A stretch of DNA of 64,000 nucleotides from Myxococcales bacterium (GTDB lineage Bacteria > Myxococcota_A > Polyangia > Nannocystales > Nannocystaceae), in NCBI GenBank assembly GCA_020633295.1, contig JACKDW010000001.1:1213828-1277827 (forward strand). Reading direction: 5' to 3'. Shown one piece after another: positions 6,663 through 9,825 of the stretch (positions are counted from its first letter, which is position 1; each line of letters opens with the position of its first letter). Below the pieces are notes generated by a model, which searched no databases, was not told the DNA's origin, and saw only the letters and a program-made list of their open reading frames with translations. The translations under genes and the position numbers were made by a program.

Positions 6663-6890
6663 AGGTCTAGCTCGGTGCCCTGCACCAGGGCGGCGTTGCG
6701 CCGCCCGGGCGTACCTCTCCGCATTCATCACAAGGAAGGCTATTCCAGAATGTCGCTGTCCCGAGAAGAGCCCGTAGACGGCGACGGGCTGGAACAACCT
6801 CGCCACTCGAAGTTCCGTACGCCGTCTACGGGCTCTTCTCGGGGCGAATTCAGTGAGCCTTCCATGTCCCAGGTCATGTCGTAGACGACC
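6663..6890 (+). repeat. Copy 1 of a conserved non-coding element with a long hairpin. Core 6726-6875; the variable stem arms 6761-6781 and 6822-6842 form a 21-bp perfect helix. Candidate structured RNA or a MITE (miniature inverted-repeat transposable element).
   Basis: About 150 nt near-identical to 9663-9812 apart from the central stem (for example catcacaaggaaggctattccagaatgtcgctgtcc ... ggcgacgggctggaacaacNtcgccactcgaagttccgtacgccgt ... ggcgaattcagtgagccttccatgtcccaggtc). The stem is entirely different in the two copies yet perfectly complementary within each. Weaker similarity extends about 60 nt upstream. Confidence 0.75.
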
Positions 6891-6986
6891 GCGCGCCTCC
6901 GGCATCGGACACCTCTTCACAACCAGCCACGGACCCCACCCAGGCGAGCCCCGACCTCGTCCGTCGTCGCCAGCAGGAGACACGCA

Positions 6987-8393
6987 GTGCCCCCGAACAC
7001 CCAGAGCTTCGACGTCATCGTGATCGGCAGCGGCCCCGGCGGTGAGGGCGCCGCGATGAAGAGCGTCAAGGAGGGCAAGCGCGTCGCCATCATCGAGCGC
7101 TACTCCGACGTCGGCGGCGGCTGCACGCACTGGGCGACGATCCCGAGCAAGGCGCTGCGCCACTCGGTTCATCAGCTCACGGAGTTCAAGCGCAGCCCGC
7201 TGGTCGGGCGCGCGTTTCGTAACGTCACCTGTACCTTCCCCCAGCTGCTGCGCACCGCCGAGTCCGTGATCGCGCGGCAGGTCGCGATGCGCCGCGGCTT
7301 CTACGACCGCAACGACGCCGCGGTGATCCACGGCCACGCGCGCTTCGTCGACGCCCACACCGTCGAGGTCGAGGACAGCCGCGGACGCGGCGCGCGCTTT
7401 CAAGCCGAGCACTTCGTGCTCGCGCCCGGCTCGCGCCCCTACCGCCCGCGCGACATCGACTTCTCGCACCCGCGCGTGTTCGACAGCGACAAGCTGCTGA
7501 CGCTCGGGCACACGCCGCAGGTCGTGACGATCTTCGGCGCCGGCGTCGTCGGCTGCGAGTACGCGTCGATCTTCCGCACGCTCGGCGTCAAGGTGAACCT
7601 GATCAACGGCCGCGACCGCCTGCTCTCGTTCCTCGACGACGAGATCACCGACGCGCTCAGCTACCACCTGCGCGACCAGGGCGTGCTGATCCGCCACAAC
7701 GAGAACTACACGCGCATCGAGCCGCTCGACGATCACGTGCTGCTGCACCTGGAGTCCGGCAAGACGCTGAAGTCCGACATCCTGCTGTGGGCCCAGGGCC
7801 GCACCGGGAACACGCAGGACCTCGGCCTCGACGCGCTCGGCATCACGCCGAACGGGCGCGGCCAGCTCGAGGTCGACGAGTTCTACCGCACGCCCGCAGC
7901 GCCGCACGTCTACGCGGTCGGCGACGTGATCGGCTTCCCGAGCCTCGCGTCGGCCGCCTACGACCAGGGCCGCTTCGCCGCCACGCACCTGGTCGAGGGG
8001 AAATGTGACTCGAGGCTGGTCGAGGACATCCCGACGGGGATCTACACCAGCCCCGAGATCAGCTCCGTGGGTCGCACCGAGCGCGAGCTGACGGCCGAGA
8101 AGGTGCCCTACGAGGTCGGCGTCTCAAATTTCCGTAACCTGGCTCGCGCGCAGATCACCGGCAACACCGTCGGCATGCTCAAGCTGCTGTTCCACCGCGA
8201 GACGCTCGCGCTGCTCGGGATCCACTGCTTCGGCGATCAGGCGGCCGAAATCGTCCACATCGGCCAGGCGATCATGGCCCAGCCCGGCGAGGCGAACACG
8301 CTGAAGTACTTCATCAACACGACCTTCAACTACCCCACGATGGCCGAGGCCTACCGCGTCGCCGCGCTCAACGGCCTCAACCGACTGCCGTGA
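6987..8393 (+). CDS. sthA: Soluble pyridine nucleotide transhydrogenase (FAD-dependent pyridine nucleotide-disulfide oxidoreductase)
   Basis: GTG 6987 with AGGAGA 7-12 nt upstream. N-terminus [17 protein letters not shown]...[25 protein letters not shown] is the SthA/UdhA signature ([16 protein letters not shown]). Second Rossmann motif [16 protein letters not shown]. Confidence 0.9.
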
Positions 8394-8622
8394 GACCGCT
8401 GCGGTGACGCCGAGCGCCGCGCGCGAGCGTGGCAGCGCGCGCGCGAGTCCGCACGACGCCGCGCGCGAGCAGCCGCCGCGCGCGACCACGTCCGCACACG
8501 CCGCGCGCCGCAGCGCGCCCGACAGCGCGCGCCTGGCCCGAAGATATTGTCGCGCGCGTCGCCGGCACGCGCCGAAATCACGGCCAGGACGAGTTCCGGA
8601 ACTGTTATGCTGCGTTGAGCCC

Positions 8623-9381
8623 ATGTCCGAGTTCCAACTCGCCACGCGCACCTCGATCACCGCGTACTATTCGCGGAGTCAGCTGTTGATCATCGCCGAG
8701 GGCAAGCTGCCGACGCCGGATTGGGAGATCGACATCAGCCAGGATCACAACCAGGCGGCGGTCCCGACGTTTCGACTCTCACGTCGCCCGCGGCCGACCG
8801 ACACCGGCGACGAGGAGACCCCGTTTCGCTACGGCGAGATCTTCACGATCGGCCGCCCGCCCGATCACATCATCGTCCGCCACGTCGACGGCGACGACCG
8901 CGTCCCGGTCGAGTTCACCAACCAGGAGCTCGTCGACATCGTGCTCAGCCTCAGCCTCGAGGACAGCCAGAGCGACGTCCTCGAGATCCCGATGCTCGAC
9001 GACATGGGCGACGAGCCGTCCTCCTCGGTCTACGACTCCGGCCTCCACCGCGTCGAGGTCAACGCGTCCTCCCTGGGCGGCGGCGGAGACGTCATGGTCG
9101 GCCAGGCCATCCCGGCGATGGGCGGGATCAACCTCGACCCGAGCCAGAGCGGCTCGGGCATGCTCAACGACCTCAGCGTCCGCTACCGCGAGTCGGTCGG
9201 CTACTCGAACAAGCTCTCCTTCGACGAGGCCTTCGCCGACGCGCTCAAGAAGCTCCCCCCGCCCGCGATGAAGTTCCCCGACATGATGGAGACCGTCGAG
9301 GTCGTGCACATCGGCGGGACCTTCGGCGGGATCGCGGGCTTCCACCGCCTCGAGGTCCGCATCCGCGCGTACCCCGACTGA
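8623..9381 (+). CDS. Hypothetical acidic cytoplasmic protein (no recognisable domain)
   Basis: ATG 8623 ([11 protein letters not shown]...). Protein-like composition with slightly lower-GC codon choice than the neighbours (tat, agt, ttg, ttt). No signal peptide. Confidence 0.55.
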
Positions 9382-9597
9382 GCGCGCGACGAGATCTCGC
9401 GCCGCCTCCAGCGCGAGCGGTCGGGCCCGCGACCCGACAAAACATGACTCATAAACCAGGTTTCCGCGCGCGCGCGCCGGGAGAAACTCACCCGCGCGCG
9501 CCGGGAGGCGCGGGAAGCTGCGGGAAGCTGTTGATCCGCGCGCCGGAGGCGTGCTATCCGATCAGCACGCGGACGAACTGCTCACCCGACCAGGAGG

Positions 9598-9825
9598 TAG
9601 GTCTAGCCTGATGCCCTGCATCAAGATCGGCGCTGCGCCGATCCGGCATCTTCCATCGCACACATCACAAGGAAGGCTATTCCAGAATGTCGCTGTCCCT
9701 CATATATGCCTCGTACGGCGACGGGCTGGAACAACGTCGCCACTCGAAGTTCCGTACGCCGTACGAGGCATATATGAGGGGCGAATTCAGTGAGCCTTCC
9801 ATGTCCCAGGTCTTGAAGTAGACAT
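9598..9825 (+). repeat. Copy 2 of the hairpin element. Core 9663-9812; stem arms 9697-9718 and 9759-9780 form a 22-bp perfect helix with a different sequence from copy 1.
   Basis: Direct comparison with 6663-6890. Same orientation. Loop and flanks identical except one c/g difference in the loop. Confidence 0.75.

Follow-up and report, generated by a model that had tools for sequence, protein, structure and literature searches.

The window analysed here, a 64-kb stretch (64,000 nucleotides) from a member of the Nannocystaceae, carries on its forward strand sthA (6987..8393), encoding soluble pyridine nucleotide transhydrogenase (NCBIfam NF003585, E 7.8e-213), and behind it a gene for an acidic hypothetical protein of 252 aa (8623..9381; D+E 40, K+R 21) for which no match was found in Pfam or NCBIfam. 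The two genes are bracketed by two copies of a repeated element, of which sthA forms no part. The repeat is real: the copies, about 250 nt each, are direct, have a start-to-start spacing of 2937 nt and share three blocks of 34-48 nt that are identical or one base apart, where none would be expected by chance. A previous sequence-only reading of this DNA had described direct copies with two genes between them, and exactly sthA and the acidic hypothetical gene are enclosed; the coordinates it gave for the copies were too short, the closing stem reaching 6647..6900 for copy 1 and 9590..9830 for copy 2, both on the plus strand. Both copies were recovered by nhmmer search (E 3e-72 for copy 1 and 3e-71 for copy 2).

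The element is a gene for a structured RNA, and its covariation is very strong. Its ends pair in a closing stem, behind which come an invariant TAGC, a small hairpin domain that tolerates GU pairs, and a hairpin of 138 nt. Over 71 base pairs in 44 sequences, 95.2% of cells are paired, as against 35-42% with the partners slid; compensatory (two-sided) changes are found in 47 of the 71 pairs, and the observed score was reached by none of 500 shuffles. Helix 1 (GTCTA/TAGAC), which forms the terminal inverted repeat, is 89.5% paired in the 44 sequences and extends outward in both copies of the window; in copy 1 the extended stem can be read from the sequence (GGAGG..GTCTA / TAGAC..CCTCC), and the limits of the copy are the outer end of this stem and its partner strand. 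Between helix 1 and helix 2, the first helix of the msr domain, the T, A, G and C of the TAGC motif are each invariant in 44/44 aligned copies. Helices 2-4, which are 86-100% paired and have compensatory changes, make up a short stem and the two hairpins that it encloses, and 27 of the 28 pairs of helix 7, in the long hairpin, show two-sided changes. The suggestion of a shared regulatory RNA, made in the sequence-only reading, is thereby borne out as regards the RNA; a regulator placed before and after a unit did not stand.

In copy 1 (fold z-score -7.9) the TAGC motif lies at 6668..6671, with G6670 as the predicted 2'-OH priming (branching) guanosine; the msr-side domain, a short stem around two hairpins, occupies 6671..6709, and the long hairpin, the predicted msd template, occupies 6730..6867 (138 nt, with a 24 bp inverted repeat that is 100% complementary). 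The corresponding features of copy 2 (fold z-score -7.0) are the TAGC motif at 9604..9607, with G9606 as the predicted priming guanosine, and the long hairpin at 9667..9804, again the predicted msd template. Each long hairpin has a stem segment of its own: that of copy 1 is formed by 6763-6777 and 6826-6840, and that of copy 2, an AT-rich segment formed by 9700-9714 and 9763-9777, is wholly unlike it yet perfectly complementary. The variable stem sequences of both copies have no further occurrence in the 64-kb window. Against the relative L001, the variable stem of each copy shows a single pair difference, and this is fully compensated.

In the curated structure, G-U pairs stand to A-C pairs as 30:2 over the closing stem and the msr helices (helices 1-4), an excess which places the RNA on the plus strand. 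In the long hairpin the ratio is 18:26, and the lack of a G-U excess there is expected if the long hairpin alone must also pair as cDNA. By the published definition, an msr-msd transcript is bounded by terminal inverted repeats and contains between one and three msr hairpins together with a long msd stem-loop (Mestre et al. 2020, PMC7736814), and TAGC is the commonest priming context among retrons (PMC6868368); the element fits both the definition and the context, and thus has the anatomy of a retron msr-msd.

Copy 2 is followed by an intrinsic terminator (9856..9908, plus strand), a G+C-rich hairpin and then ACUUUUUU; a 100-nt fold of this region gives -49.7 kcal/mol (z -4.95), and positions 9837-9910 are 100% identical in the relative L001 despite diverged flanks. 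On the 5' side of copy 2 there is a promoter-like island (9531..9560, plus strand), with TTGATC, 18 nt, and TATCCG preceded by an upstream TG; it is a conserved block in a spacer that has otherwise diverged between the window and L001, and may be the promoter of copy 2. A consensus scan for promoters and terminators over 6300-10300 flagged nothing, the promoter-like island included, and the terminator escaped it on account of its loop, which has more than 8 nt. A distance of 87 nt separates the end of copy 1 from the sthA start codon, and no terminator intervenes, as would be expected of a cis-regulatory leader (riboswitch or attenuator) of sthA. We nevertheless consider such a leader extremely unlikely: copy 2 runs to its terminator with no gene following on its strand, the same RNA precedes retron genes in other phyla, and in relatives the upstream copy precedes the HU gene instead of sthA (L003, L024) or, in Nannocystis, there is none before sthA.

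A comparison of gene order with relatives had been proposed on the strength of the sequence alone; the relatives do carry the elements, at differing positions around the same genes. The order is HU, copy, sthA, hypothetical gene, copy in L001, and copy, HU, sthA, hypothetical gene, copy in L003; L024 has three copies, and in Nannocystis both copies are in tandem downstream of the hypothetical gene. The latter gene is conserved across the Nannocystaceae and adjoins the RNA genes in the Nannocystaceae-type loci fetched; an identical protein has the NCBI name H6713_04900, and its sequence is present in GCA_020431325.1 as well. We infer that the direct repeats around sthA and the hypothetical gene reflect duplication and reshuffling of RNA genes at a vertically inherited Nannocystaceae locus.

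The sequence-only reading had instead put forward, as its first possibility, a mobilized or recombined cassette, with the repeats either terminating a mobile or amplifiable unit that contains sthA and the hypothetical gene, or serving as its recombination sites. Homologous recombination could indeed act on direct repeats that share exact blocks of 34-48 bp, but the remaining evidence leaves this explanation with hardly any likelihood. The enclosed genes are core genes with host codon usage: the "noticeably lower-GC codons" attributed to the hypothetical gene were not found, its GC3 being 0.949 against 0.953 for sthA and 0.90-0.98 for six neighbors, and its small drop in total GC is confined to codon positions 1 and 2. 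The conservation of the hypothetical gene in the family and the shifting positions of the copies, tandem in Nannocystis, also speak against a cassette, and scans of the flanking genes from 857 to 14174 detected neither a transposase nor an integrase domain. Searches of phage and plasmid collections with the element (BLAST) gave short chance matches only, and the invariant 21-mer had zero matches in viral contigs. Finally, the supposed gene truncated by insertion is an artefact. The minus-strand ORF (9621..10073) does run through copy 2, as had been described, but it is spurious, consisting of the antisense of copy 2 and its terminator plus 49 unconserved codons: the C-terminal two thirds translate the RNA in antisense, residues 50-79 correspond to the terminator hairpin read in antisense, and for the first 49 residues none of the fetched loci has a match, not even that of L001, a relative with 91% identity. 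Its GC3 is 0.62, compared to 0.90-0.98 for genes.

No Rfam family reached its gathering score in the window, and raising E up to 10 gave generic hairpin matches only; any retron msr model in Rfam would therefore not have matched either. A full-text literature search for the conserved words of the element returned unrelated primer matches only. The candidates 6S RNA, Y RNA, bridge and omega RNAs and attC sites were rejected, given the lack of an Rfam match, the lack of a partner protein nearby and the linkage to retron genes. A transposon, MITE or integron cassette boundary was likewise rejected, since the copies are direct and internally structured, the flanking genes scanned gave no recombinase domain and the enclosed genes are conserved in the sampled relatives.

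In the textbook retron the ncRNA is contiguous with the reverse transcriptase (RT) gene and lies immediately upstream of it. No such contiguity exists in the window: an RT motif and homologues of RT_XIII, SWIM and HEAT-ARM were all sought in the 64 kb and none was found, so that the window has neither the linked SWIM Zn-finger and HEAT/ARM genes nor the clade-10 RT of a type XIII retron. In other lineages these genes do stand beside homologous RNA copies. In 11 loci (Planctomycetota, Verrucomicrobiota, Bradymonadales and other Myxococcota) the element adjoins a gene for a HEAT-ARM/BRCT protein of about 1080 aa; this protein matches PADLOC HEAT-ARM_XIII with E = 0 in both scanned representatives (L037, L018) and is 38-72% identical in the other nine loci (tblastn). 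In the three loci that are long enough (L018, L039, L045) the gene is followed by a giant HEAT-ARM_XIII gene, and in L056, L057 and L062 the gene order is HEAT-ARM, giant, SWIM_XIII, RT_XIII, with the ~1080-aa HEAT-ARM gene first; L062 has the complete set of HEAT-ARM_XIII, SWIM_XIII and RT_XIII. Full-length homologues in other phyla are thus at the head of an operon running on into type XIII retron genes. In L041/L057/L058, about 200 nt past the RT_XIII stop codon (RT E 7e-160), there is a copy that is interrupted by the end of the contig.

In the Nannocystaceae genomes the SWIM, HEAT/ARM and RT genes form an operon that is unlinked to the RNA. In Nannocystis pusilla (CP185339.1) 3.1 Mb lie between the RT operon (1.43-1.45 Mb) and the RNA pair (4.52-4.53 Mb), and in the MAG AC1.67 the RT operon and the RNA copies are on separate contigs. 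No RT of the source genome could be identified among the best 120 homologues of a Nannocystaceae RT. The RT family is large: at E below 1e-50, a Nannocystaceae member has over 5000 matches among database proteins. With no RT in the window, the two copies are detached ncRNA genes and not a complete retron.

The immediate neighbor in the 11 loci is the HEAT-ARM/BRCT gene and not the RT gene. In the operons seen whole, the RT gene lies about 11 kb past the start of the HEAT-ARM/BRCT gene, and the RNA is never directly upstream of the RT gene but occupies the opposite end of the operon, or is convergent or divergent; L059 has a tandem hairpin array of another kind just before its RT gene, from which it follows that the type XIII RT family may use more than one RNA type. 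These arrangements would also suit an RNA that serves as scaffold or partner of the HEAT/ARM-BRCT proteins, in the manner of Y RNA or another RNP RNA, and is never reverse transcribed, so that adjacency would reflect protein binding only. We think this unlikely, because the closing stem ends exactly at the invariant TAGC and the long hairpin, unlike the msr helices, has no excess of G-U over A-C. Moreover, partial genomic copies stop near the predicted priming site: those in L054, L044 and L033 all end with CCCAGGTC and 0-3 further nt, at a distance of 4-8 nt from this site. From these ends, the partial copies look as integrated msDNA fragments would. Such a partial copy accompanies two tandem full copies in Nannocystis exedens DSM 71 (L022:4889-5482 and L054:7320-7404), a species that makes msDNA and for which duplicated msr-msd without an RT has been reported (PMC6868368).

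Another reading would make the copies non-functional relics, ncRNA genes that were left behind or retro-copied and are now drifting, which is near the original "retrotransposition" reading of the N. exedens repeats. There is no RT nearby, partial copies resembling dead insertions exist, and the published reading of Ne160 is duplication and insertion by a distant RT (PMC6868368). Decay is nonetheless very improbable, more so than the scaffold. The full copies hold the msr domain, both strands of the closing stem and the flanking signals, parts that could not have come from an msDNA copy; the 95% pairing, with nearly all changes two-sided, is held across family- and phylum-level divergence. Between the window and L001 the copies are 95% identical whereas the spacers are 76-78% identical, and the terminator is 100% conserved. 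The syntenic position of the copies is also kept across the Nannocystaceae-type loci.

Taken together, each copy is probably an independent retron-type ncRNA (msr-msd) gene of the family that accompanies type XIII retrons; the repeats do not mark where a mobile cassette begins and ends. Each copy would be transcribed on the plus strand, copy 2 with its own terminator and the promoter-like island, and as the RNA ends pair, the invariant G of TAGC (6670, 9606) would come to lie where the closing stem ends. An RT of type XIII, encoded elsewhere in the genome, may then recognize the small hairpin domain, prime from the 2'-OH of this G and copy the 138-nt hairpin into an msDNA of about 145-160 nt, a prediction which includes its ends. 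The two genes would in this way yield two msDNA species with a common scaffold, differing in the 15-bp stem segment. A more tentative proposal, which we hold to be possible though doubtful, is that the type XIII retron of the Nannocystaceae is a split, vertically inherited system in which one RT/HEAT-ARM/SWIM operon acts in trans on several chromosomal ncRNA genes; their paralogous msd stems would have diversified while remaining perfectly Watson-Crick paired, and the msDNA repertoire would provide interchangeable specificity modules. If so, the individual msDNAs might, for example, sense different triggers or act as decoys for them, or they might bind the BRCT/HEAT proteins as ligands.

A concrete annotation, two retron-type RNA genes with no Rfam match, replaces the speculation about a mobile cassette and a truncated gene. 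It indicates that a retron template RNA can stay under long and strong structural selection while unlinked from its RT, and that such RNAs occur as paralogues with different msd stems. A covariance model of the RNA would allow type XIII retron RNAs to be found genome-wide, and would offer those working on Nannocystis a direct test of trans-acting reverse transcription.

With the E. coli retron ncRNAs (Ec86/Eco1) the element has in common the a1/a2 closing stem, the TAGC context, the msr hairpins and the msd hairpin; it differs in having no sequence similarity to them, a much longer hairpin, no adjacent RT or effector and no prophage association. Type XIII retrons, which include Mx162, Mx65, Sa163 and Ne144 (Mestre et al. 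2020, PMC7736814), are reported as the most broadly distributed retron type, and no function is established for them in the literature reviewed. The element resembles them in its msr-msd anatomy with a priming G, in that its homologues adjoin HEAT-ARM_XIII genes, and in an inheritance that appears vertical, as reported for the type (PMC7736814). It differs in that none of their protein genes is in the window and, from the textbook arrangement as well, in the placement of the RNA, which is at the operon head 5' of the HEAT-ARM/BRCT gene, convergent after the RT gene or, in Nannocystaceae, megabases away. Closest is Retron-Nex1 (Ne160) of N. exedens, for which the literature describes a duplication of msr and msd repeats and no RT closer than a kilobase (PMC6868368, summarizing Lampson and Rice 1997). 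Compared by this published description, the detached RNA genes of the Nannocystaceae fit: the bacterial family is the same, msr-msd units are duplicated without an RT within a kilobase, and a predicted msDNA of about 145-160 nt is compatible with 160 nt. The copies in the window differ in being parted by two genes rather than tandem, and in their stem sequences; and where the published reading is retrotransposition, the present conservation and covariation argue for RNA genes that are functional and have been maintained.

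The repeat is genuine and well beyond what chance would give. Two copies of an element of ~250 nt lie in direct orientation on the + strand (copy 1, 6647-6900; copy 2, 9590-9830), 2937 nt apart from start to start, and a 34-mer of the element occurs exactly twice in the 64 kb (72% G+C), where chance predicts no occurrence. Overall identity between the copies is 82%, with three blocks of 34-48 nt that are identical or differ by one base; these blocks are separated by a ~15-bp stem, both arms of which are wholly different between copies, and within each copy the arms of the stem are 100% complementary over 24 bp. 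As the sequence-only reading had described, the copies enclose exactly two genes: sthA, for the soluble pyridine nucleotide transhydrogenase (6987-8393; NCBIfam NF003585, E 7.8e-213), and hyp (8623-9381), encoding a 252-aa acidic hypothetical protein that indeed matches no Pfam or NCBIfam domain. The lower-GC codons ascribed to hyp were not borne out: its GC3 is 0.949, versus 0.953 for sthA and 0.90-0.98 for the neighbours. At the protein level, hyp corresponds to NCBI H6713_04900 (Myxococcales bacterium; 100% identity), which places the window in a Myxococcales/Nannocystaceae metagenome-assembled genome. The predicted model of the hyp protein (pLDDT 74.6) has three regions, one being a disordered acidic linker; we found no evidence of a functional tie to the RNA. 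The gene just before copy 1 (6086-6472) encodes an HU-like DNA-binding protein (Pfam Bac_DNA_binding, E 1.3e-21), and in it 5-6 units of the 12-nt tandem repeat GACCTCGAGAGC (6400-6469) encode an acidic (DLES)n tail; this tail appears to be lineage-specific, since the orthologues in L001 (the closest relative sampled, 91% identical) and in the related locus L003 are shorter, at 113 and 96 aa.

What is repeated is a structured RNA. Compared with shuffled sequence, each copy has a far more stable fold (z -7 to -8). Homologues came from loci encoding relatives of the hyp protein and from a single scan of 185,579 species genomes with the invariant 21-mer, and nhmmer recovered 63 distinct full-length copies. 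Covariation was assessed on 44 aligned sequences, using a curated 71-pair structure: standard pairs fill 95.2% of the alignment cells, versus 35-42% with partners slid by 1-3 columns, two-sided changes are seen in 47 of the 71 pairs, and none of 500 shuffles reached the observed covariation. Between the window and L001, exactly one fully compensated pair differs in the variable stem of each copy. In + strand order, the structure comprises an end-to-end closing stem, an invariant TAGC, a short stem around two small hairpins, a ~20-nt linker and a 138-nt hairpin whose base and apical parts are invariant and whose middle varies strongly. The G-U to A-C ratio of 30:2 in the closing stem and small helices settles the + strand as the RNA strand; for the long hairpin it is 18:26, wobble pairs being tolerated no better than mismatches, as expected if this hairpin has to pair in the RNA and again in the complementary DNA. 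In the alignment of element copies (columns 126-146), one word, AGTACCCCTAC, together with its complement GTAGGGGTACT, recurs often in the “variable” stem of distant taxa (for example, L006, L009, L017, L027, L018, L045 and L016), so that the stem may have an ancestral sequence rather than being freely variable; the stem of window copy 1 resembles a derivative of AGTACCCCTAC, and the AT-rich stem of copy 2 does not.

The minus-strand ORF at 9621-10073, for which the sequence-only reading had considered a gene truncated by insertion of the element, does not represent a gene. It has a GC3 of 0.62, and residues 83-150 are an antisense translation of the element, and therefore “match” every element copy in other genomes. 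Residues 50-79 are antisense to 74 nt (9837-9910) that L001 shares at 100% identity and that fold on the + strand into a G+C-rich hairpin followed by ACUUUUUU, the intrinsic terminator of copy 2. The N-terminal 49 residues have no match in any fetched locus, L001 included. We therefore rejected the truncated gene in favor of an antisense artefact.

The bracketing of sthA and hyp invited the idea of a cassette mobilised through the elements, and the two copies could physically undergo homologous recombination. In relatives, however, the RNA copies are placed variously around the same genes. The window and L001 share the order HU, RNA, sthA, hyp, RNA; L003 has RNA, HU, sthA, hyp, RNA; L024 has RNA, RNA, HU, sthA, hyp, RNA; and in Nannocystis species the order is hyp, RNA, RNA, with sthA further upstream. 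Within this hyp cluster (18 loci from Nannocystaceae or unclassified Myxococcota and one binned as Phycisphaera), hyp adjoins RNA genes in 19 of 19 loci. Window copy 1 has a stem matching that of the downstream copy in L003 and L024, which means that copies have undergone reshuffling or conversion. The RNA gene very often occurs as 2-3 tandem copies 330-500 nt apart (L037, 3755-4511; L032, 1767-2873; L024, 5526-6137; and Nannocystis L005, L008, L022, L028, L031, L046, L048 and L049), identical in L037 and L024 and with differing stems in Nannocystis. Given the varied arrangement and the reshuffling, the bracketing is one outcome of RNA-gene duplication at a vertically inherited locus; we found no evidence for mobility of sthA and hyp in the relatives' loci, nor any match of the element in phage, plasmid and viral-contig collections, and the mobile cassette was rejected.

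The element matched no Rfam family, and nothing in the phage, plasmid and viral-contig collections. Its gene neighborhoods were informative: in 11 loci from Planctomycetota, Verrucomicrobiota, Bradymonadales and other Myxococcota it adjoins a gene for a ~1080-aa protein with HEAT repeats and a BRCT domain, mostly just upstream on the same strand and divergently in one locus. Two representatives scanned (L037, L018) match the PADLOC type XIII retron model HEAT-ARM_XIII (E = 0), and the remaining nine share 38-72% identity (tblastn). Where the locus extends far enough (three cases), the following gene encodes a ~2200-aa protein (HEAT-ARM_XIII PDLC02919, E = 0), and L056, L057 and L062 have the order HEAT-ARM gene, giant HEAT-ARM, SWIM_XIII (E 1e-194) and RT_XIII (E 6.5e-159). 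In L041/L057/L058 an element copy cut by the contig end lies ~200 nt past the RT_XIII stop codon, in convergent orientation (RT E 7e-160). The myxobacterial retrons Mx162, Mx65, Sa163 and Ne144 belong to type XIII, a class marked by SWIM and HEAT/ARM partners and vertical inheritance; an msr-msd transcript is defined by terminal inverted repeats, 1-3 msr hairpins and a long msd stem-loop (PMC7736814), and retrons are most commonly primed within TAGC, at the inner stem end (PMC6868368). The element fits both the definition and the priming context point by point and, together with the neighborhoods, this leads us to read each copy as an msr-msd gene, with predicted priming guanosines at G6670 (copy 1) and G9606 (copy 2). 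L037 also has, on the same strand as its RNA pair and HEAT-ARM gene and ~1.7 kb upstream of them, a gene (6237-7073) for a DEDDh exonuclease with a fused WYL domain (PADLOC DEDDh, E 1.5e-38).

Three partial genomic copies are limited to the 3' portion of the hairpin template: 7320-7404 in L054 (N. exedens), ~5772-5828 in L044 (N. bainbridge) and ~4500-4536 in L033 (a deltaproteobacterial MAG). All end at CCCAGGTC plus 0-3 nt, 4-8 nt from the predicted cDNA start, and those of L054 and L044 have the stem sequence of a full copy in L022. They look like integrated msDNA fragments and count as indirect evidence of reverse transcription; titles of papers by Lampson refer to such retro-copies in N. 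exedens. The priming G lies 212-213 nt from the first template base; the end of a 145-160-nt product would fall in the linker or at the long hairpin's base, these ends being predictions. Reverse transcription of the element, like the msDNA ends and any function, is what we infer here.

No RT motif and no RT, SWIM or HEAT-ARM homologue was found within the 64-kb window. In the complete N. pusilla chromosome, the four-gene operon occupies 1.43-1.45 Mb, and the two tandem RNA genes are found at 4.52-4.53 Mb; in the Nannocystaceae MAG AC1.67 the RT operon and RNA genes are on separate contigs. Searches with nhmmer around the RT of L056, L059 and L062 (9-10 kb each side, short of the operon head) found no element copy. 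In the scanned Nannocystis genomes, the invariant 21-mer occurs only in the RNA pair and, in two species, one partial copy; in N. exedens DSM 71 the two full copies form a tandem (L022), alongside a single partial one (L054). The literature describes Retron-Nex1 (Ne160) of N. exedens as duplicated msr and msd repeats, with no RT closer than a kilobase (PMC6868368). More than 5000 database proteins match the RT at E below 1e-50, which makes the family very large, and by the standards of retron RTs its conservation is unusual, the best 120 of these all being at least 61% identical, across phyla. On the 2.9-Mb contig of L059, four tandem units of ~160 nt (8331-9001) lie between SWIM-like and RT_XIII genes, each with a long inverted repeat around a core with GGCUAGA (fold z -36); this array is a candidate for a different, arrayed ncRNA of the same RT family and, as it stands right before the RT, the RT_XIII family may use more than one RNA type. 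In textbook retrons the RNA is immediately upstream of the RT, whereas in the RNA-carrying type XIII operons seen here it is not so placed; the window pair are ncRNA genes of retron type, detached from any RT and probably of the type XIII or, going by its published description, Nannocystis Ne160 kind.
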